From the IMG/VR virus record IMGVR_UViG_3300001347_000003: a stretch of 64,000 nucleotides of DNA. One strand, written 5' to 3'. Each line of letters opens with the position of its first letter. Within the stretch, counting starts at the first letter, position 1. Position numbers and translations under genes: made by a program. Positions 4,546-57,611 of the stretch are shown in pieces. Below the pieces are notes generated by a model. That model saw only the letters and a program-made list of their open reading frames with translations. It did not search any database and had not been told where the DNA came from. The stretch is from a virus.

Positions 4546-4885
4546 AGCATCAATTTTAGCGCACGAAGAAATCAAGCCCAAGAAACTATCTATTGAACAA
4601 CAGATATATTCTTACCTGGAAAACAATGGCGCAACTAGTCTACAGATGATTGAGTTTCATTTGGGACTAAAGAATCAAACAGCGTCAGCAAGACTAAGCG
4701 AGATGCACGACAAAGGCATAGTATGTTTTGATGCCTACGGTTCATATCGGGTGACGCATGATGAAACAGAAAAGAGGGAGGTAGAGTGGCTTCGAATGCG
4801 TGACAAATACGAAAAGTGGAAAAAGCAAGGTGTAAAGAATGGGTGGTTAATTAGTGACTTTGATTCCCGAACCAACAAACAATAG
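4538..4885 (+). CDS. Winged-HTH DNA-binding protein
   Basis: QIYSYLENNG...LGLKNQTASARLSEMHDKG; ATG at 4538 chosen over the track start at 4511. Confidence 0.65.
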   Translation: MSKASILAHEEIKPKKLSIEQQIYSYLENNGATSLQMIEFHLGLKNQTASARLSEMHDKGIVCFDAYGSYRVTHDETEKREVEWLRMRDKYEKWKKQGVKNGWLISDFDSRTNKQ

Positions 4886-4886
4886 A

Positions 4887-5744
4887 ATGAAAACTGTGAC
4901 AAGCGTAAGCGGCGGGCAATCATCAGCATATATAGCGGCAAACTACCCAAGCGATTACTTGGTATTTGCTTTGGTATGCATAGAAGACCGTAAATGCACT
5001 CCAAAGGATGCAAAACTAGTTCAAGCGGTAAGCGATCGAATTGGAAAGGAGTTTATAGCCACGGCAGAAGACGATACTATCCTGCACACAATGTTTGACC
5101 TTGAGCAATATCTAGGCGAGTCCATTGATTGGGTCACAGGAGCTACGTTTGACGAAATCACAAGTGGAAAACACGGGAAAGTCTTACCGAGTCCTTTACG
5201 CAGATACTGTACCGCACTTATGAAGCTGAAACCAATGTTCGAATGGTGGAGAGAAAAAATAAACGAGCCAGTTAAAATGCAGATAGGATTTCGAGCAGGA
5301 GAAGAACGAAGGGCGGCATCTCATTTTAGTAAATGCAATGCAGACGGTCTTTTAGAACAAAAGCATATTGTTGGACAGCACACAAACGGAAACAATAAAT
5401 GGGCGGAAACAGCGTGGCAAAAGCCAGTTTTTCCAATGATACAGGACGGGATTTACCGCGACAAGATAGTTGAGTTTTGGAAAGACAAACCCGTTCGATT
5501 TGCAGAAAAAAATAACTGCGTAGGATGCTTTCACAGAAACCCTATTTTGCTTCGCACTATGTTTGACAAGCACCCAAATAAAATGGAATGGTTTGCAAGT
5601 CAGGAGCGAAACCGTACTTATCCGAACGATATATTTCTAGTAGGGAAAGAGACAACTTACGATCAGATAAAAAAACACAAACTACAGCACGCATTATCTT
5701 TCAAGGATTTCAGCGAATGCGATTCAGGACATTGCGGATTATGA
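4887..5744 (+). CDS. PAPS reductase/PP-loop family protein
   Basis: SVSGGQSS PP-loop, RRYCT, IGFRAGE, NCVGCFH and terminal ECDSGHCGL. Confidence 0.75.
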   Translation: MKTVTSVSGGQSSAYIAANYPSDYLVFALVCIEDRKCTPKDAKLVQAVSDRIGKEFIATAEDDTILHTMFDLEQYLGESIDWVTGATFDEITSGKHGKVLPSPLRRYCTALMKLKPMFEWWREKINEPVKMQIGFRAGEERRAASHFSKCNADGLLEQKHIVGQHTNGNNKWAETAWQKPVFPMIQDGIYRDKIVEFWKDKPVRFAEKNNCVGCFHRNPILLRTMFDKHPNKMEWFASQERNRTYPNDIFLVGKETTYDQIKKHKLQHALSFKDFSECDSGHCGL

Positions 5745-6520
5745 CACATGGATCACTCTTTTCAGGAATTGGAGGCTTTGACCTAGCAGCTGAATGGGCA
5801 GGGTTTACTAATGTCTTTAATTGCGAGTGGGAAGAATTCCCCCAAAAAATCCTCAAATACCATTTTCCCAATGCAGAACAATACGCAGACATACACGACT
5901 TCGACGCAACTAAGTATAATGGACGAATTGACGTTCTCAGCGGAGGTTTCCCATGTCAAGACGCAAGCATCGCTAAACAACACGGAAAAGGCCAAAAAGG
6001 ACTTGAAGGCGACAGAACAGGGTTATGGACAGAAATGGTTCGCGCCATCAAAGAAATACGACCCAAATACGTCGCCGCCGAAAACGTATCGAATATTCTC
6101 AGAACCAACAATGGACGAGATTGGAGAACAATCCTCGGTGAATTGGATGGAATGGGGTACAATGCAGAATGGAGAGTTACAAGAGCGAGCGAAATCGGTG
6201 CCTGCCACCACCGTTCCCGGTGCTACTTGGTTGCTTACCCCAACAGCATCCGACTCAATGAGGGAGAATCTTTCTTCTCCAATGTACTTCAAGAGATACC
6301 GCAGAAGCGCAGGCTCTTTGCCGGAACATCTGCATCGGTTGGGGTTTCGTGGGAAACTGAACCCGTTGTTTCCGGGTTGGATGATGGGCTTCCCCAAGAA
6401 CTGGACGGCATTACCTTTCCAAAGTGGAGAAGAGAATCAATCAAAGCATACGGAAATGCCATAGTGCCACAAGTAGCACATCGTATATTTGAATCTATCA
6501 AAGAGTACGAACACCTGTAA
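5741..6520 (+). CDS. DNA (cytosine-5)-methyltransferase, alpha polypeptide
   Basis: Motif I SLFSGIGG, motif IV GGFPCQ, motif VI ENV, motif VIII HHRSRCY, motif X AYGNAIV; ATGA coupling at 5741-5744. Confidence 0.92.
   Translation: MTHGSLFSGIGGFDLAAEWAGFTNVFNCEWEEFPQKILKYHFPNAEQYADIHDFDATKYNGRIDVLSGGFPCQDASIAKQHGKGQKGLEGDRTGLWTEMVRAIKEIRPKYVAAENVSNILRTNNGRDWRTILGELDGMGYNAEWRVTRASEIGACHHRSRCYLVAYPNSIRLNEGESFFSNVLQEIPQKRRLFAGTSASVGVSWETEPVVSGLDDGLPQELDGITFPKWRRESIKAYGNAIVPQVAHRIFESIKEYEHL
5811..6464 (+). CDS. Putative methyltransferase beta polypeptide, nested in the +1 frame (carries motif IX)
   Basis: 217 stop-free codons inside the MTase gene; WLLTPTASD and GKLNPLFPGWMMGFPKNWT; alternative starts at 5871 and 5919. 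Confidence 0.72.
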   Translation: MSLIASGKNSPKKSSNTIFPMQNNTQTYTTSTQLSIMDELTFSAEVSHVKTQASLNNTEKAKKDLKATEQGYGQKWFAPSKKYDPNTSPPKTYRIFSEPTMDEIGEQSSVNWMEWGTMQNGELQERAKSVPATTVPGATWLLTPTASDSMRENLSSPMYFKRYRRSAGSLPEHLHRLGFRGKLNPLFPGWMMGFPKNWTALPFQSGEENQSKHTEMP

Positions 6521-23351: not shown

Positions 23352-23714
23352 ATGATACAACTTACCAACGATGCAGGTTACCAATCGTTCTATCTAAAGC
23401 TAGATGGATATGACACTACAGCATTAACGAACGTCAGGGTTACAATCGTAAATCAATTGACTGGTAAGTTGACGGCTTTTGGATCGGTTACGCCTACGGC
23501 AGCGAACGGTAGGTATACGACCATTCAAATCGAAATAGCGGCTAGTCCAAAACTTGTTGAAGGTTTGTATTTGTTGACAGTCAAAAATGATGCAAACAAT
23601 GTAACTTACGCTAAACGTCTTGCGTTTGTTTCAAGCACACCTGCCTTTGAAGAATCGACATACACGCCGTATGAAGAAAACGATACAGACGCATACAACG
23701 TATACGCACAATGA
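23352..23714 (+). CDS. Hypothetical virion protein
   Basis: ATG at 23352, downstream of the terminator; ATGA-coupled to the portal gene. Confidence 0.65.
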   Translation: MIQLTNDAGYQSFYLKLDGYDTTALTNVRVTIVNQLTGKLTAFGSVTPTAANGRYTTIQIEIAASPKLVEGLYLLTVKNDANNVTYAKRLAFVSSTPAFEESTYTPYEENDTDAYNVYAQ

Positions 23715-25681
23715 ATAAGCAGAACTTCTCAATTTTACAGTATCAAGCTACTAACGTTCCTCTTTTTCGAGAGAGTCAGAATAAGCTGTGGATTGATATG
23801 GGCGTTGACAATCTATACCCACACTACTTAGAAGAACTTTTTGCTAGTTCAAGTATGCACGGTGCAATCATTAAAGGCGCAAGCGAAATGATTTATGGTG
23901 AAGGCTTGAATGCAATTGGAAAAGATAAACACGTTGACCAATGGCTAAAGGTAAATTCTATTTTTGGCGATGGATCGTGTTTAAAGAAAGCTGCCTTTGA
24001 CCTAAAGCTATACGGTCAATGCTACTTAAATATCATTTGGAGTCAAGACCGAACTACGGTTAGCCGTGTATACCATTTGCCAGCCGCTACTATTCGATGC
24101 GGCATAGCTGACGATGAAGATAATATCCCTTTGTTCTATCATAAAAAGGATTGGGACAAACAGCAAGAAGAGCCTTTAGTCATTCCCGCTTTCAATACCA
24201 ACGATAGAACTGCGCCTTCGCAATGCTTGCATATCAAAATGTATACGCCATTATCGTTTTACTATGGCGCACCCGATTATCAAGCAGGCACAAATTGGGC
24301 GCAAATAGCGTCTGATTTATCCGACTACCATCTTTCCACAATTTCTCAGGGCTTCTTTCCTAGTACCATTATGTCTTTTTTTGGGGGCGTACCAACAGAA
24401 GAAGAACGTGCTGAATTAGAGCGATTAGTTTATAACAAGTTCGGAGGGGCGAACAACGCAGGTAAAATCTTGATGACGTTTAATGACTCACAAGACACAG
24501 CCCCAACTGTTGAAAGTTTTAATATATCCGATGCTCACCAAATCTTTGACTATCTAAGTGAGCAATGCGATAAAAAAGTATTGTCAGCGCATAGGGTAAC
24601 TTCCCCGTTGCTATTTGGTTTGCGCGATACAGGAGGAGGTTTTGGAAACAATGCTGATGAGATGAAAGAGTCGTATGACTTGTTCTATAACACAGTCATT
24701 TTACCTTTCCAACGTCTCTTGCTTGACGGCTTACGTCCAGTCTTTGCAGCGAGTAACGTTACGCTTGAATTGTACTTTACACCTATGAAGCCTGCATCAT
24801 TTGTAGACGTAGATAATTTGTTTAATCCTGTAGCAGCAGGCGATAGTTCAGATAAAGATGCGAGTTATGATGGCGGGCAAATTGGAAGCGCGGTTGATGT
24901 CTTAGTCAAAGTGCAAGAAGGGCTTATTACAGTTGATCAAGCTAAAGTATTCTTAGTGCAGATGTTGCAATTTACACCTGAAGTAGCAGATGCTTTGTTT
25001 AGGGAAGGCGTAGACGCAATCGAAGAAGTACAGAAGGAAGAGGTACAAGAAGAGGCAATTGCAGAAACGCAGTTAAAAAAAAAAGACTCTGAGTTAAAGA
25101 AGCGCATGAGGGCTTTGGACGCAAGGTTGGGCGAAGATTACTATCACGTAAAATCTGAATTGGTAGATGATGATGGGATTGATGAAATGCTACACGCTAA
25201 GAAGCATTTGTTTTATGCTGAATACTCAAACGTAGAAGATGTTTCCGAGTACGATATAATTGGAAAAGATGACTACTTGTTTGCGGTTAGGTATCGATAC
25301 GCAGAAACCGCTACTACGCCTGCACAGAGCAACGAAAGCAGGGACTACTGCGTAGACATGATGGAACTTTCCGATGATGGTGTTATCTATCGTTACGAAG
25401 ACATAGAGGATATGTATTATGAAAATCCTGAATTTAATCACCCTGGCACATCGGGTTTCGACAAGTTCACCCTAAAGGGCGGTATCTATTGCAGGCATGG
25501 ATGGCAAAGGGAAATCTTTATTTACGCTCCTGACGGTGAACCAAAGGAAATGGATATGATAGAAATTGAAGGAAATTGGGATGACGTAATGCGTAGGGTT
25601 GGCAATAACCCTGACGTAGTACAGAAGGGAGAAGAATACATTGCACCAATTGATATGCCTAATAGGGGCGCATATAACTAA
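23711..25681 (+). CDS. Portal protein with long C-terminal extension
   Basis: DNLYPHYL...DLKLYGQCY...GANNAGK...AHRVTSPLLFG portal pattern; C-terminal KGGIYCRHGW domain after an A10 run. Confidence 0.85.
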   Translation: MNKQNFSILQYQATNVPLFRESQNKLWIDMGVDNLYPHYLEELFASSSMHGAIIKGASEMIYGEGLNAIGKDKHVDQWLKVNSIFGDGSCLKKAAFDLKLYGQCYLNIIWSQDRTTVSRVYHLPAATIRCGIADDEDNIPLFYHKKDWDKQQEEPLVIPAFNTNDRTAPSQCLHIKMYTPLSFYYGAPDYQAGTNWAQIASDLSDYHLSTISQGFFPSTIMSFFGGVPTEEERAELERLVYNKFGGANNAGKILMTFNDSQDTAPTVESFNISDAHQIFDYLSEQCDKKVLSAHRVTSPLLFGLRDTGGGFGNNADEMKESYDLFYNTVILPFQRLLLDGLRPVFAASNVTLELYFTPMKPASFVDVDNLFNPVAAGDSSDKDASYDGGQIGSAVDVLVKVQEGLITVDQAKVFLVQMLQFTPEVADALFREGVDAIEEVQKEEVQEEAIAETQLKKKDSELKKRMRALDARLGEDYYHVKSELVDDDGIDEMLHAKKHLFYAEYSNVEDVSEYDIIGKDDYLFAVRYRYAETATTPAQSNESRDYCVDMMELSDDGVIYRYEDIEDMYYENPEFNHPGTSGFDKFTLKGGIYCRHGWQREIFIYAPDGEPKEMDMIEIEGNWDDVMRRVGNNPDVVQKGEEYIAPIDMPNRGAYN

Positions 25682-27710: not shown

Positions 27711-27859
27711 GCAATCACACAAAAACACCTGAACAAATGCACTCTTTGGTAGCTGATATGTTAGCGGCTCAAACAGATGCAGAAAAAATTGTTCTTATTG
27801 AAATATTTTTACAATCGTTTGTAGATGATTTTTACGCCTTTGAAATTGAAGAGCCATGA
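27707..27859 (+). CDS. Small protein, 50 aa (not in ORF track)
   Basis: MSNHTKTPEQMHSLVADML...EIEEP; ATGA overlaps at both ends. Confidence 0.6.
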   Translation: MSNHTKTPEQMHSLVADMLAAQTDAEKIVLIEIFLQSFVDDFYAFEIEEP

Positions 27860-28062
27860 ATTACGAATTGATTAGCGTAGCGGTGGGTGCAGTCGGCGGG
27901 ATAATCGGAACTTATGTGAAGATGGAAAACGAACTGACGAAAGTAAAAAGCCGTTTGATTAGCTTAGAGAAACAAGAAACTAGGGTGCAACAATCCTTGG
28001 ATGTTTTGCTAGAAGGCGTAAACGAAATCAAATTGCTACTCGCTAAAAAAGGAATAGAATGA
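27856..28062 (+). CDS. Small membrane-anchored coiled-coil protein (holin/lysis accessory candidate)
   Basis: Hydrophobic N-terminus LISVAVGAVGGIIGTYV followed by a heptad region. Confidence 0.6.
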   Translation: MNYELISVAVGAVGGIIGTYVKMENELTKVKSRLISLEKQETRVQQSLDVLLEGVNEIKLLLAKKGIE

Positions 28063-28422
28063 ATGCAGATTAAGATGTCTACTCGCTTAGTTGTTTTGAC
28101 TAAAACAAAGGCTTTTAAAATTCCATTGGATCGCAGAGGATGGTTGCAAGGAATAAACGAAGGCAAGGTTTGGAAGGATTACAAAAGAAGCGGTTATCTT
28201 GCTCCGTTGCTTTGGTCGTTCGGTGGGTTTGTTTGTATGCGGAGAATCGCACCTACTAACGAAATACCTTCGCAACTTGTTGCAATGGTTAAAGCTACTA
28301 TTCCCGCTTTTGACATTACTAACTGTGACTTGTACCGTTTAGAAAATTGGGGCGAGTATAGGGGTTCTCGTGTACTTTTAGATTACGGCATCGACGAACG
28401 CATTTCAACAATGTACGCATGA
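28063..28422 (+). CDS. Minimal protein-kinase-like protein
   Basis: AFKIP lysine, NE glutamate, CDLYRLEN catalytic-loop-like, LLDYG DFG-like. Confidence 0.6.
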   Translation: MQIKMSTRLVVLTKTKAFKIPLDRRGWLQGINEGKVWKDYKRSGYLAPLLWSFGGFVCMRRIAPTNEIPSQLVAMVKATIPAFDITNCDLYRLENWGEYRGSRVLLDYGIDERISTMYA

Positions 28423-28508
28423 AACTACGAAGGCAATATGAAGATAGTTTTTACTTGGTAGTCGTAGGGGTAATCGGGTTGCTTTTATCTGTGCTTTATT
28501 TGCTATGA
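28419..28508 (+). CDS. 29-aa single-TM peptide (not in ORF track)
   Basis: MKLRRQYEDSFYLVVVGVIGLLLSVLYLL; ATGA overlaps at both ends. Confidence 0.55.
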   Translation: MKLRRQYEDSFYLVVVGVIGLLLSVLYLL

Positions 28509-28918
28509 GGCAGCTTAAAAAAATTATCTTGCATTGCACGGCTACCAGGGAAGGGCAAGAATTAGACATAACAACCATTGACCATTGGCACAGAAAAAGG
28601 GGATGGTCAGAAATCGGTTATCACTACGTGATTTATGCTAATGGGTTTATAGCAACCGGAAGGGACATAAGAAAAAAAGGTGCGCACGTTAAAGGAGAAA
28701 ATCATGATTCCGTAGGTGTCGCATACGTAGGGGGACTTGATCAAAATTTAGTACCAACAGACACAATGACCATGAAGCAAGAACTAGCTTTTTTGCATTT
28801 AGTAAATTCCTTACGTGTCGTGTTTGGTGAACTATCTGTACATGGACATAATGAGTATTCAAGCAAAGCCTGCCCTAGCTTTAACGTGCAGGAAAAATAT
28901 AAATTCTTAAATAAATAA
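28505..28918 (+). CDS. Endolysin, N-acetylmuramoyl-L-alanine amidase (T7 lysozyme-like)
   Basis: IILHCTAT, IGYHY, GAHVKG, GHNE...KACPSF zinc ligands. Confidence 0.92.
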   Translation: MRQLKKIILHCTATREGQELDITTIDHWHRKRGWSEIGYHYVIYANGFIATGRDIRKKGAHVKGENHDSVGVAYVGGLDQNLVPTDTMTMKQELAFLHLVNSLRVVFGELSVHGHNEYSSKACPSFNVQEKYKFLNK

Positions 28919-28920
28919 AG

Positions 28921-29085
28921 ATGGATTTTCTACTATCGAATTGGAGCGAAATCGCGCTCATTTTAATCACGGCAGGCTCAAGTTATACTGCCTTAACCGA
29001 AACAAAAGCCGACGATAAAATTTTTAATGTTTTGTCACGGATTTTGCAAGCGGTAGTTTTTGGAAAAAACCGAGGCAAGAAGTAA
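28921..29085 (+). CDS. Holin-like small protein, 54 aa (not in ORF track)
   Basis: MDFLLSNWSEIALILITAGSSYTALTETKADDKIFNVLSRILQAVVFGKNRGKK; hydrophobic helices and basic tail, after the endolysin. Confidence 0.55.
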   Translation: MDFLLSNWSEIALILITAGSSYTALTETKADDKIFNVLSRILQAVVFGKNRGKK

Positions 29086-33017: not shown

Positions 33018-34075
33018 AGGCTTAGGCGATGACATTGAAAAGTTTACGGAAGCCACAGGCATTAAAAAAGTCGTGGAGAAAGTATCGGAAATTACGGGCA
33101 AAGACTGCGGATGTAAGAAAAGAAAGGAGTATCTTAATAGAAGGTTTCCCCGTTATGATGGCATGAGCAAAGCCGATCAAAAAATATGGGTAGATGTATT
33201 GAAGCCTAAGTTTCAAGAAGGAGCGACAGTTTCATTGGCTTACCAGGAAACGTTCATTGACGTATACCAACGCACATTTGGAATCCGTTTGAAAAAAACG
33301 AATTGCGGAAAATGCGTATTAGAAAATCTAGAGCAACTAGAAAAGGCATACGCTATTAGCTGCGACAAATGAAGATACTATGTCCTGCTATACTTGACGG
33401 CTACCAACGCAGAAAGGATCGTAGCGTAAGTTTGCGCTTGCTTACCCAAGAGCAGACGAGCCAAGACCTAATGAACATTGACAGTTTGTTAGACACATTC
33501 GGCATACTGTACTTTAGGGCTGATGATTCGCCTGAAGACAGCGTACCATTTGAAGAGTTAGACAGCATAGAGTTAGACTTGTACGATAAGAAGAAGACAC
33601 AGAGCCAAAGGCTACGTGCCGTACTCTACAAGTTGTACAAGCAAGAGGGAGGGGAAGGAGAATTTAAAGACTACTACAAGGTAAAGACAGAGAAAATAAT
33701 TGAACATTTTAAAAGCAGATTACAAGATGAGTAAAGCATCAATTTTAGCGCACGAAGAAATCAAGCCCAAGAAACTATCTATTGAACAACAGATATATTC
33801 TTACCTGGAAAACAATGGCGCAACTAGTCTACAGATGATTGAGTTTCATTTGGGACTAAAGAATCAAACAGCGTCAGCAAGACTAAGCGAGATGCACGAC
33901 AAAGGCATAGTATGTTTTGATGCCTACGGTTCATATCGGGTGACGCATGATGAAACAGAAAAGAGGGAGGTAGAGTGGCTTCGAATGCGTGACAAATACG
34001 AAAAGTGGAAAAAGCAAGGTGTAAAGAATGGGTGGTTAATTAGTGACTTTGATTCCCGAACCAACAAACAATAGA

Positions 34076-34933
34076 ATGAAAACTGTGACAAGCGTAAGCG
34101 GCGGGCAATCATCAGCATATATAGCGGCAAACTACCCAAGCGATTACTTGGTATTTGCTTTGGTATGCATAGAAGACCGTAAATGCACTCCAAAGGATGC
34201 AAAACTAGTTCAAGCGGTAAGCGATCGAATTGGAAAGGAGTTTATAGCCACGGCAGAAGACGATACTATCCTGCACACAATGTTTGACCTTGAGCAATAT
34301 CTAGGCGAGTCCATTGATTGGGTCACAGGAGCTACGTTTGACGAAATCACAAGTGGAAAACACGGGAAAGTCTTACCGAGTCCTTTACGCAGATACTGTA
34401 CCGCACTTATGAAGCTGAAACCAATGTTCGAATGGTGGAGAGAAAAAATAAACGAGCCAGTTAAAATGCAGATAGGATTTCGAGCAGGAGAAGAACGAAG
34501 GGCGGCATCTCATTTTAGTAAATGCAATGCAGACGGTCTTTTAGAACAAAAGCATATTGTTGGACAGCACACAAACGGAAACAATAAATGGGCGGAAACA
34601 GCGTGGCAAAAGCCAGTTTTTCCAATGATACAGGACGGGATTTACCGCGACAAGATAGTTGAGTTTTGGAAAGACAAACCCGTTCGATTTGCAGAAAAAA
34701 ATAACTGCGTAGGATGCTTTCACAGAAACCCTATTTTGCTTCGCACTATGTTTGACAAGCACCCAAATAAAATGGAATGGTTTGCAAGTCAGGAGCGAAA
34801 CCGTACTTATCCGAACGATATATTTCTAGTAGGGAAAGAGACAACTTACGATCAGATAAAAAAACACAAACTACAGCACGCATTATCTTTCAAGGATTTC
34901 AGCGAATGCGATTCAGGACATTGCGGATTATGA
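34076..34933 (+). CDS. PAPS reductase-like protein (copy 2)
   Basis: Identical to 4887-5744. Confidence 0.75.
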   Translation: MKTVTSVSGGQSSAYIAANYPSDYLVFALVCIEDRKCTPKDAKLVQAVSDRIGKEFIATAEDDTILHTMFDLEQYLGESIDWVTGATFDEITSGKHGKVLPSPLRRYCTALMKLKPMFEWWREKINEPVKMQIGFRAGEERRAASHFSKCNADGLLEQKHIVGQHTNGNNKWAETAWQKPVFPMIQDGIYRDKIVEFWKDKPVRFAEKNNCVGCFHRNPILLRTMFDKHPNKMEWFASQERNRTYPNDIFLVGKETTYDQIKKHKLQHALSFKDFSECDSGHCGL

Positions 34934-35709
34934 CACATGGATCACTCTTTTCAGGAATTGGAGGCTTTGACCTAGCAGCTGAATGGGCAGGGTTTACTAA
35001 TGTCTTTAATTGCGAGTGGGAAGAATTCCCCCAAAAAATCCTCAAATACCATTTTCCCAATGCAGAACAATACGCAGACATACACGACTTCGACGCAACT
35101 AAGTATAATGGACGAATTGACGTTCTCAGCGGAGGTTTCCCATGTCAAGACGCAAGCATCGCTAAACAACACGGAAAAGGCCAAAAAGGACTTGAAGGCG
35201 ACAGAACAGGGTTATGGACAGAAATGGTTCGCGCCATCAAAGAAATACGACCCAAATACGTCGCCGCCGAAAACGTATCGAATATTCTCAGAACCAACAA
35301 TGGACGAGATTGGAGAACAATCCTCGGTGAATTGGATGGAATGGGGTACAATGCAGAATGGAGAGTTACAAGAGCGAGCGAAATCGGTGCCTGCCACCAC
35401 CGTTCCCGGTGCTACTTGGTTGCTTACCCCAACAGCATCCGACTCAATGAGGGAGAATCTTTCTTCTCCAATGTACTTCAAGAGATACCGCAGAAGCGCA
35501 GGCTCTTTGCCGGAACATCTGCATCGGTTGGGGTTTCGTGGGAAACTGAACCCGTTGTTTCCGGGTTGGATGATGGGCTTCCCCAAGAACTGGACGGCAT
35601 TACCTTTCCAAAGTGGAGAAGAGAATCAATCAAAGCATACGGAAATGCCATAGTGCCACAAGTAGCACATCGTATATTTGAATCTATCAAAGAGTACGAA
35701 CACCTGTAA
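34930..35709 (+). CDS. C5 DNA methyltransferase alpha (copy 2)
   Basis: Identical to 5741-6520. Confidence 0.92.
   Translation: MTHGSLFSGIGGFDLAAEWAGFTNVFNCEWEEFPQKILKYHFPNAEQYADIHDFDATKYNGRIDVLSGGFPCQDASIAKQHGKGQKGLEGDRTGLWTEMVRAIKEIRPKYVAAENVSNILRTNNGRDWRTILGELDGMGYNAEWRVTRASEIGACHHRSRCYLVAYPNSIRLNEGESFFSNVLQEIPQKRRLFAGTSASVGVSWETEPVVSGLDDGLPQELDGITFPKWRRESIKAYGNAIVPQVAHRIFESIKEYEHL
35000..35653 (+). CDS. Nested methyltransferase beta polypeptide (copy 2)
   Basis: Identical to 5811-6464. Confidence 0.72.
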   Translation: MSLIASGKNSPKKSSNTIFPMQNNTQTYTTSTQLSIMDELTFSAEVSHVKTQASLNNTEKAKKDLKATEQGYGQKWFAPSKKYDPNTSPPKTYRIFSEPTMDEIGEQSSVNWMEWGTMQNGELQERAKSVPATTVPGATWLLTPTASDSMRENLSSPMYFKRYRRSAGSLPEHLHRLGFRGKLNPLFPGWMMGFPKNWTALPFQSGEENQSKHTEMP

Positions 35710-57251: not shown

Positions 57252-57611
57252 ATGCAGATTAAGATGTCTACTCGCTTAGTTGTTTTGACTAAAACAAAGG
57301 CTTTTAAAATTCCATTGGATCGCAGAGGATGGTTGCAAGGAATAAACGAAGGCAAGGTTTGGAAGGATTACAAAAGAAGCGGTTATCTTGCTCCGTTGCT
57401 TTGGTCGTTCGGTGGGTTTGTTTGTATGCGGAGAATCGCACCTACTAACGAAATACCTTCGCAACTTGTTGCAATGGTTAAAGCTACTATTCCCGCTTTT
57501 GACATTACTAACTGTGACTTGTACCGTTTAGAAAATTGGGGCGAGTATAGGGGTTCTCGTGTACTTTTAGATTACGGCATCGACGAACGCATTTCAACAA
57601 TGTACGCATGA
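57252..57611 (+). CDS. Minimal kinase-like protein (copy 2)
   Basis: Identical to 28063-28422. Confidence 0.6.
   Translation: MQIKMSTRLVVLTKTKAFKIPLDRRGWLQGINEGKVWKDYKRSGYLAPLLWSFGGFVCMRRIAPTNEIPSQLVAMVKATIPAFDITNCDLYRLENWGEYRGSRVLLDYGIDERISTMYA

Follow-up and report, generated by a model that had tools for sequence, protein, structure and literature searches.

A minimal kinase-like protein encoded by a phage is a predicted stand-alone half-kinase

Results

A predicted half-kinase encoded by a gene under purifying selection

The subject of this report is a 119-residue protein, here termed the mini-kinase, which is encoded at 28063..28422 on the + strand of the IMG/VR virus record IMGVR_UViG_3300001347_000003. 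The window referred to below is the whole stretch of that record that was analyzed, 64,000 nucleotides in length. Based on the open reading frame (ORF), its homologues, a structural model, fold matches, and a codon comparison, our favored reading is that the mini-kinase is a stand-alone "half-kinase" of the protein kinase-like (PKL) superfamily, an autonomous accessory phosphotransferase that is predicted to be active, and to which we assign a probability of about 0.7. The chain consists of a kinase N-lobe, one helix, a catalytic loop, a DYG motif, and a 10-residue tail. An initial annotation, made from the letters of the DNA, had placed the protein in the PKL superfamily, and this reading is supported by the predicted fold, by profile homology to true kinases, and by the conservation of the catalytic residues.

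A word-seeded search returned 40 proteins of 117-140 residues with 45-99% identity to the mini-kinase, none of which carries a Pfam domain or an informative name. Compared codon by codon with six relatives that are unsaturated at synonymous sites, the gene gave ratios of nonsynonymous to synonymous substitution (dN/dS) of 0.03-0.16, and the mini-kinase is a real gene under purifying selection. One metagenomic relative, P0038 (140 residues), matches the mini-kinase at residues 1-24 and ∼50-94 and diverges between and after these stretches, which looks like the result of frameshifts or assembly errors in a close relative.

The five motifs from which the initial annotation had recognized a kinase are all present at the places it gave, namely S6-T-R-L-V-V-L12, A17-F-K19-I-P21, I31-N-E33, C88-D89-L-Y-R-L-E-N95, and L105-L-D107-Y-G109. 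They are not a product of chance, since K19, E33, D89, N95, and D107 are invariant in 38 homologues (45-99% identity) and strongly kept in 121 distant relatives; variation of these residues among homologues is what the annotation had said would speak against a kinase. Also invariant in the 38-sequence alignment are S6, R8, V10, P21, R25, G26, Q29, G30, N32, W37, L46, and G55 and, further along the chain, L90, W96, G97, L105, Y108, G109, and Y118.

Conservation at greater distance was counted over 121 full-length relative domains. The remnant of the Gly-rich loop together with strand beta2, S6-T-R8-L-V10-V-L (28078..28098; this and the following motifs are on the + strand), retains R8 in 108 of the 121. 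The beta3 lysine of the VAIK type, K19 (28117..28119), is kept in every one (121/121), and the helix-C glutamate, E33 (28159..28161), in 115. In the catalytic loop, C88-D89-L-Y-R-L-E-N95-W-G97 (28324..28353), D89 is kept in 94 relatives and eight more have an Asp one column later (∼102 in all), N95 is kept in 93 and is otherwise Ser (14), Gln (6), or His (5), and G97 is kept in 118. The DFG equivalent with its Mg-binding Asp, D107-Y-G109 (28381..28389), keeps D107 in 115, Y108 in 118, and G109 in 112. As first noted in the initial annotation, the spacing from the catalytic Asp to the Asn is one residue longer than canonical, and this is confirmed for the present branch (D+6 versus D-x4-N, or D+5). 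Other branches of the family have the canonical D+5 spacing, for example as D-I-K-x-x-N, of the Ser/Thr-kinase type, and as D-M-H-P-G-N, of the APH type.

The predicted fold is that of a kinase N-lobe plus active-site loops

An AlphaFold2 model of the mini-kinase, built with the 38-sequence alignment, has a predicted local distance difference test score (pLDDT) of 87.3 and a predicted template modeling score (pTM) of 0.78. The model contains strands at residues 2-5, 8-12, and 16-21 (carrying K19), a helix at 24-43 (carrying E33), strands at 49-53 and 56-60, a helix at 70-79, strands at 96-99 and 102-105, and a helix at 112-115. This corresponds to the order beta1-beta2-beta3-alphaC-beta4-beta5, a hinge, one helix, the catalytic loop, beta7-beta8, the DFG equivalent, and a short helix.

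A Foldseek comparison, which the initial annotation had proposed, found the predicted structure to be PKL-like. The matches in the PDB were nearly only PKL folds (Lpg2603, PRPK/Bud32, Rio2, TTK, APH(2''), Ark1, and NleH2), with SAICAR synthetase as the sole non-kinase fold in the list. A Foldseek-independent scan of 48,161 chains with VIA-align gave Rio2 (Z 8.7), ULK4 (8.5), Ark1 (8.4), and Rio1 (8.2), in a type of scan where Z scores of 7-8 are common among unrelated models. There were 213 chains at Z >=5, and the top 50 are all kinases except for two entries of the SAICAR-synthetase type, a fold with a related core. The best match in a refined structural comparison was ACVR1 (Z 9.1, 113/119 residues aligned), with Ark1 at 8.5; overall, the best structural matches align 107-113 residues with a root mean square deviation (rmsd) of about 3. 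In TTK, the model covers residues 528-669, which extend from beta1 to just past DFG. The BFVD contains 19 viral structural matches at E <=1e-3, a few of which were automatically named "protein kinase domain," and among the named clusters of the ESM Atlas, the T7 kinase, Kinase-PolyVal, and YrbL, which are all PKL, come nearest. The case for a PKL fold rests on the uniform hit list and the sequence profile rather than on Z alone.

Profile searches connect the family to true kinases

When 1.84 billion representatives were searched exhaustively with a profile, 201 proteins were recovered at E <=1e-3. Two of them, P0074 (1,619 residues) and P0097 (550 residues), are repeat-rich and owe their scores to brief recurring motifs (e.g., V-D-L-Y-K-E-H-P-W-G). 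Both are probably spurious, which would make 201 a slight overestimate, and were excluded from the family counts.

When a 120-member family profile was compared with the sequences of the PDB, it matched TTK/Mps1 with an E value of 3e-5 over the region from beta1 to DFG. The alignment places the family G-x-G-S-S-R-x-V on G-S-G-G-S-S-K-V of TTK, K19 on the beta3 Lys of Y-A-I-K, and the helix-C N-E with E33 on N-E-I, and it also pairs the V-M-E hinge, the catalytic-loop Asn, and DYG with DFG. In the hidden Markov model alignment of the catalytic loop to that of TTK, N falls on N and DYG on DFG, and the catalytic Asp is displaced by one. Weaker matches of the same profile were to SteC (N-lobe, E 2.4e-4), APH(2'')-Id, and other Ser/Thr kinases, and single members reach the Pfam families ABC1, YrbL, and Kinase-PolyVal, all kinase-like, below threshold. 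On this profile evidence, the mini-kinase family is homologous to true kinases.

Searches with smaller inputs were less informative. A Pfam scan of the mini-kinase gave no match at E <=1, and neither the mini-kinase nor a 38-member profile yielded anything useful from Pfam or the PDB; kinases were reached only with the 120-member profile. The best-scoring PDB entries there, designed ankyrin proteins (E 0.16), were dismissed as chance matches to L-L-x-Y-G. Pfam scans of ten longer relatives found no kinase family, and those of ten relatives with canonical D+5 spacing found one weak ABC1 match only. In the PHROG scan, the mini-kinase matched only phrog_4301 (unknown function, E 5e-9) and, weakly, phrog_21931.

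The family lacks the C-terminal subdomain

The initial annotation had described a protein far shorter than typical kinases that lacks most of the C-lobe as well as the Gly-rich-loop glycine, and this description proved accurate. S6-T-R8 of the mini-kinase is what remains of G-x-G-S-S-R, and longer relatives keep G-x-G-S-S-R-x-V. At the other end, the chain stops 10 residues after DYG. Across 173 family proteins, the tail after DYG has a median length of 11 and a maximum of 50 residues, and the C-terminal subdomain is absent across the family. Kannan et al. (2007) surveyed 20 PKL families, which have ∼100 residues after DFG, including alphaF (PMC1821047). In the members from the T4-like Escherichia phage ECP52 (126 residues, L002:2977-3354) and the jumbo Erwinia phage pEp_SNUABM_52 (124 residues, L003:2968-3339), only one residue follows DYG, and the D-x4-N spacing is canonical. 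Relatives of 250-300 residues are extended at the N terminus and carry a helical insertion that separates the hinge from the catalytic loop, yet they still end soon after DYG; a model of a 278-residue relative (pLDDT 75.5) has only kinase matches (best E 5.6e-4).

Two explanations for the missing part were rejected. The first is a split gene with the C-lobe encoded next door; what lies downstream varies from locus to locus, and here it is an amidase gene. The other is a truncated remnant of a longer kinase, against which stand the uniform lengths, the low dN/dS, and the lack of any long-tailed family member.

Tandem arrays of two to five C-lobe-less domains occur in the metagenomic proteins P0049 (923 residues), P0067 (638), P0070 (491), and P0083 (454), where each copy keeps G-x-G-S-S-R, the Lys, Q-N-x-x-E, and D-Y-G. 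Such an arrangement hints at possible function of the domains as dimers or arrays.

Distribution among phages

The family is large and phage-specific, and its proteins are mostly 110-190 residues long. At least 108 encoding loci were found in IMG/VR. Relatives with 42% identity occur in Flavobacterium phages of the genus Elemovirus (62 records), and others are found in T4-like, rV5-like, and jumbo coliphages (including PBECO4 and 121Q), as well as in Erwinia, Aeromonas, Ralstonia, Pseudomonas, Klebsiella, and other phages. The branch of ECP52 and pEp_SNUABM_52 alone comprises about 98 phage records, including phages isolated on E. coli K-12. Relatives are nearly always annotated as "hypothetical protein" and occasionally as "serine/threonine kinase."

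A search of ∼185,000 bacterial and archaeal species genomes with the mini-kinase found no relative. Repeated with a 12-sequence alignment, it found one, on a 2,152-bp contig of a Flavobacterium metagenome-assembled genome, which supports a flavobacterial host. These results suggest that the family is essentially phage-only and is found more in lytic phages than in prophages.

Gene context was surveyed in 70 of 80 fetched IMG/VR loci, namely those in which a simple gene caller recovered the mini-kinase gene. The layout of a holin-like gene, the mini-kinase, an amidase, and a 54-residue gene is confined to the closest clade. Co-location with lysis genes is likewise restricted to the close clade (>=74% identity) and a few loci at 50-57% identity in which the gene lies beside the 54-residue membrane protein. 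Elsewhere, the mini-kinase relative follows a metallophosphoesterase (five loci), ribonucleotide reductase, Gam-like, Mom-like, methyltransferase, or tape-measure gene, and in 10 loci it comes before the large terminase, in others before a primase/helicase. In the Flavobacterium phage elemoA, it follows a primase/helicase. No PHROG family appears more than three times among the 124 non-redundant neighbors of the 70 loci. Since gene contexts vary outside the close clade, linkage to lysis is a property of a lineage and not a trait of the family; the initial annotation had proposed asking whether homologues are also linked to lysis genes, and across the 70 loci such linkage is not conserved.

In the five loci with a metallophosphoesterase, the enzyme is calcineurin-like and lies directly upstream (e.g., L016:3093-3794 and L018:4071-4919). 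In elemoA, a metallophosphoesterase (L001:5425-6126) is found within ∼1 kb downstream of the mini-kinase relative. This could be a kinase/phosphoesterase pairing, which is not general and may reflect shared ancestry only.

The genome and the local gene order

The window (1-64000) consists of 2.19 exact, concatenated copies of a 29,189-bp genome; at this period, the 34,811 positions compared show 0 mismatches. Features in 1-34811 recur 29,189 bases further on. The mini-kinase gene is therefore present a second time at 57252..57611 (+ strand). The GC content of the window is 41.9%, and the + strand carries nearly all long ORFs. PHROG matches of the window proteins indicate a small tailed-phage genome, with a replication initiator (30886), NinG/Rap (32132), a large terminase (36044), a portal (23711-25681), a 1,564-residue virion protein, a tape-measure-like protein, and a prohead protease. 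A PAPS-reductase-like gene followed by a C5 methyltransferase was also matched (34043-35709, also 4854-6520); the former overlaps the start of the C5 DNA methyltransferase, and the pair lies just upstream of the terminase.

The mini-kinase gene is the fourth from last of the late block, in which the order is a fibre-like 469-residue protein, a 50-residue protein, a 68-residue holin-like protein, the 119-residue mini-kinase, the endolysin, and a 54-residue protein. In agreement with the initial annotation, the ORF is located between a membrane protein and the endolysin. The upstream neighbor (27856..28062, + strand) is a holin/XhlA-like membrane and coiled-coil protein of 68 residues, as judged by weak matches (holin phrog_1296, E 1.6e-3, and XhlA) and by hydropathy, with one N-terminal hydrophobic segment followed by a coiled coil. 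The downstream neighbor (28505..28918, + strand) is an N-acetylmuramoyl-L-alanine amidase endolysin of the Amidase_2 type (PF01510, E 3e-9; phrog_822, E 5e-49). On its 3' side lies the 54-residue protein (28921..29085, + strand), which has a hydrophobic N-terminal segment and adjoins the mini-kinase again in eight related loci.

The TGA stop of the holin-like gene directly abuts the ATG of the mini-kinase, and the two are probably co-translated. Between the mini-kinase stop and the endolysin start there is an 82-base gap (28423-28504), in a block where most genes abut or overlap. Promoter and terminator scans around the mini-kinase gene, including 28423-28504, gave nothing above chance, with a sigma-70 consensus that is unsuited to Bacteroidota. 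We read the source of the window as a ∼29-kb phage of flavobacterial type that would express the mini-kinase late, with the position in the lysis cassette being happenstance.

Discussion

A proposed mechanism for the half-kinase

The domain would comprise a five-stranded N-lobe with helix C, one helix replacing alphaD and alphaE, the catalytic loop, beta7-beta8, and the Mg-binding DYG. In our proposal, ATP would sit between the N-lobe sheet and the catalytic loop, with the K19-E33 pair positioning the alpha and beta phosphates and with S6 and R8 of the shortened beta1-beta2 loop replacing the Gly-rich clamp. D107 and N95 would hold the metal ions, and D89 would serve as the base when the gamma-phosphate is transferred to a hydroxyl. 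Because there is no C-terminal subdomain for docking, the substrate would have to be held by other means, which could be an exposed and strongly basic surface, self-association, or the substrate itself. The 38 close homologues have a median isoelectric point (pI) of 9.7 and a net charge of +8, and pI exceeds 8.5 in 67% of the short distant relatives.

The near-invariant catalytic residues and the strong selection lead us to predict activity, and judged from its sequence the mini-kinase is probably an active ATP-dependent phosphotransferase. The matches to eukaryotic-type protein kinase profiles and the relatives with D-x-K-x-x-N favor a protein substrate, and the charge and the Ark1/Rio-like structural neighbors suggest RNA or another polyanion. 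The gene would be an accessory one, lying at changing module borders from phage to phage, and this shifting position points to an autonomous accessory function in host manipulation or counter-defense. Our current hypothesis is that its most likely role is to modify a host (or phage) target during infection and not lysis as such; a role in counter-defense, which the initial annotation had also raised, is possible.

Several observations weigh against this interpretation. The fold is a prediction, and the best scores (Z 8-9, Foldseek E 5e-3) are modest on their own, with SAICAR synthetase also scoring Z 7.5-8.3. The mini-kinase begins M-Q-I-K-M-S-T-R-L-V and thus has no Gly-rich-loop glycine and no GxGxxG. 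Its catalytic loop contains an extra residue and has no conserved Lys at D+2, and N95 is replaced by Ser, Gln, or His in about one fifth of the relatives. Finally, alphaF is the spine anchor in characterized kinases, and without it the mini-kinase may not be catalytically competent alone.

Alternative readings

The reading closest to ours differs from it only in the class of substrate. By analogy with Ark1, Rio, APH, and Kdo kinases, the enzyme might act on a non-protein polyanion such as a nucleotide, RNA (including tRNA), or a sugar or lipid of the envelope. Basic charge is a consistent feature of the family, the RNA kinase Ark1 is among the best and shortest matches (Z 8.4-8.5, rmsd 2.8, 105 residues aligned, TM score 0.63), and the neighboring genes include metallophosphoesterases, nucleotide kinases, and ribonucleotide reductase. 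However, the best profile matches are eukaryotic-type protein kinases, the relatives include the Ser/Thr-kinase-type D-x-K-x-x-N loop, Ark1, Rio, ACVR1, and TTK differ by no more than 1 Z unit in structural score, and no neighbor is conserved. We regard a non-protein substrate as possible, if unlikely. A different proposal concerns catalysis itself, in that the protein could bind ATP and serve as a scaffold, switch, or decoy. The lack of a C-lobe, of alphaF and an activation segment, and of the Gly-loop glycine would fit such a pseudokinase, as would the irregular catalytic loop. Pseudokinases typically lose at least one of K, D, and the Asp of DFG, whereas K19 (121/121), D107 (115/121), and D89 (∼102/121) are retained here under strong purifying selection. 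The near-invariant K/E/D/N/D set makes the degenerate pseudokinase, which the initial annotation had kept as its alternative, improbable. A further reading takes up another guess of the annotation, that the protein tunes the timing of lysis, and would have it phosphorylate the holin-like protein, the endolysin, or an envelope target. In its favor, the gene lies between a holin-like gene and an amidase, with its start abutting the holin stop. In related loci, a holin-like gene (seven), an amidase (six), or the 54-residue membrane protein (eight) lies within three genes, and one relative with 60% identity follows an endolysin-like gene. These loci are related by descent and thus not independent. 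The gene sits elsewhere in the majority of the 70 loci, near terminase (10 loci), primase/helicase, or other genes; amidases make up 3 of the 124 non-redundant neighbors; the relative in a T4-like coliphage is near the internal head protein gene ipI, and that of elemoA follows a primase/helicase. A search of the mini-kinase for features of lysis proteins found no clear membrane segment (the best 19-residue hydropathy window is 1.06) and no lysis PHROG. With co-location limited to the close clade and no neighbor family recurring more than three times, a lysis-timing regulator is distinctly improbable, more so than a pseudokinase.

It is also conceivable that the mini-kinase is a stand-alone member of Kinase-PolyVal (PF18762), the C-lobe-less kinases of polyvalent proteins in Bacteroidetes phages and prophages described by Iyer, Burroughs, Anand, de Souza, and Aravind in 2017, of which stand-alone versions occur in Bacteroidetes (PMC5512222). 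Both have lost the whole C-terminal subdomain, keep the residues for ATP binding and phosphotransfer, and belong to mobile elements, and the Kinase-PolyVal domain ends 10-15 residues after its DFG equivalent. In addition, one of 120 relatives touches PF18762 (E 0.007), and the ESM Atlas feature score to the PF18762 cluster is 0.90. The two differ in length (∼160 positions versus 118), in pI (∼4.6, acidic, versus a median of 9.7), in motifs (G-A-E-Q, D-L-H-D-E-N, and I-D-T-V versus S-T-R, C-D-L-x4-N-W-G, and D-Y-G), and in distribution, Kinase-PolyVal being present in 16 of 401 Bacteroidota genomes and the mini-kinase family in 1 of ∼185,000 species genomes. By motif order, the Glu that PF18762 conserves ahead of strand 2, invariant in G-A-E-Q, would fall at the S-T-R8 stretch of the mini-kinase. 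Position 59 (beta5), which may correspond to the conserved Gln in the last N-lobe strand of PF18762, is Met in the mini-kinase and in about half of its close homologues and Gln in the rest. The mini-kinase has no Pfam match, and hhalign of both family profiles against 12 true PF18762 domains from Bacteroidota gave probabilities of 1.3% and 0.7% (E 0.04 and 0.08). Membership is thus very unlikely; by these sequence comparisons, the two appear to share an architecture with no detectable common ancestry beyond the superfamily, and the C-lobe may have been lost at least twice among the kinases of mobile elements.

Comparison with other known kinases

The half-kinase we favor resembles eukaryotic-type protein kinases, as seen in the profile match to TTK/Mps1 with motifs in register and in the best structural score, that of ACVR1. 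Those kinases differ in having an activation segment, an APE motif, and alphaF-alphaI (∼100+ residues after DFG, a part that is absent here), as well as GxGxxG and D-x4-N. Ark1 (PDB 8yv5, 173 residues; ArkI, PMC9095486), Rio1/Rio2, and Bud32/PRPK are compact kinases with a reduced C-lobe that align over 102-111 residues (Z 7.8-8.7, rmsd 2.6-3.6). Unlike the mini-kinase, they keep helices after the DFG equivalent, and they have no sequence-level match to it; in the 173-residue chain of Ark1, only residues 3-121 align. The type III effector "minimal kinases" NleH/OspG and SteC also have reduced kinase folds (NleH2, 4o96, Foldseek E 0.07), but they are longer, keep helices after DFG, and are bacterial effectors aimed at eukaryotic hosts, and the matches to them are weak and partial. 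The T7 gp0.7 kinase (T7K) is, like the mini-kinase, a phage-encoded PKL enzyme, and it is the nearest named ESM Atlas cluster (0.91). It acts on many host proteins and counters defenses, has a DPV motif in place of DFG, and carries a C-terminal shut-off domain (PMC13645617). The PHROG and Pfam scans of the mini-kinase gave no match to the T7K family (PHROG 2828, PF27024).

Significance of the family

Literature searches for a described phage mini-kinase returned only the Kinase-PolyVal paper and the work on T7K, and nothing on the mini-kinase family, which is absent from Pfam and is represented in PHROG by phrog_4301 alone, a family of unknown function. Phage PKL enzymes, and even a PKL domain without a C-lobe, are already known. 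To our knowledge, characterized PKL enzymes all keep the post-DFG helical subdomain, whose roles are to anchor the catalytic spines and to dock the substrate. That subdomain is missing from the present family, which numbers at least a few hundred phage proteins, while every catalytic residue has been kept under strong selection. If active, the mini-kinases would represent the minimal catalytic unit of a much-studied fold, and this would raise the question of how the substrate is recognized. We put forward, tentatively, that members of 117-126 residues are fully active and would then be the smallest protein-kinase-fold phosphotransferases known, that the part after DFG, including alphaF, would be dispensable for catalysis, and that the family would form a common and unrecognized class of host-modifying or counter-defense proteins in phages ranging from flavobacterial podovirus-sized to T4-like and jumbo coliphages. 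Recent work has shown broad disarming of bacterial defenses by phage kinases (T7K, PMC13645617), and for this reason the mini-kinases, as a second, widespread, and structurally distinct phage kinase family, are worth testing.

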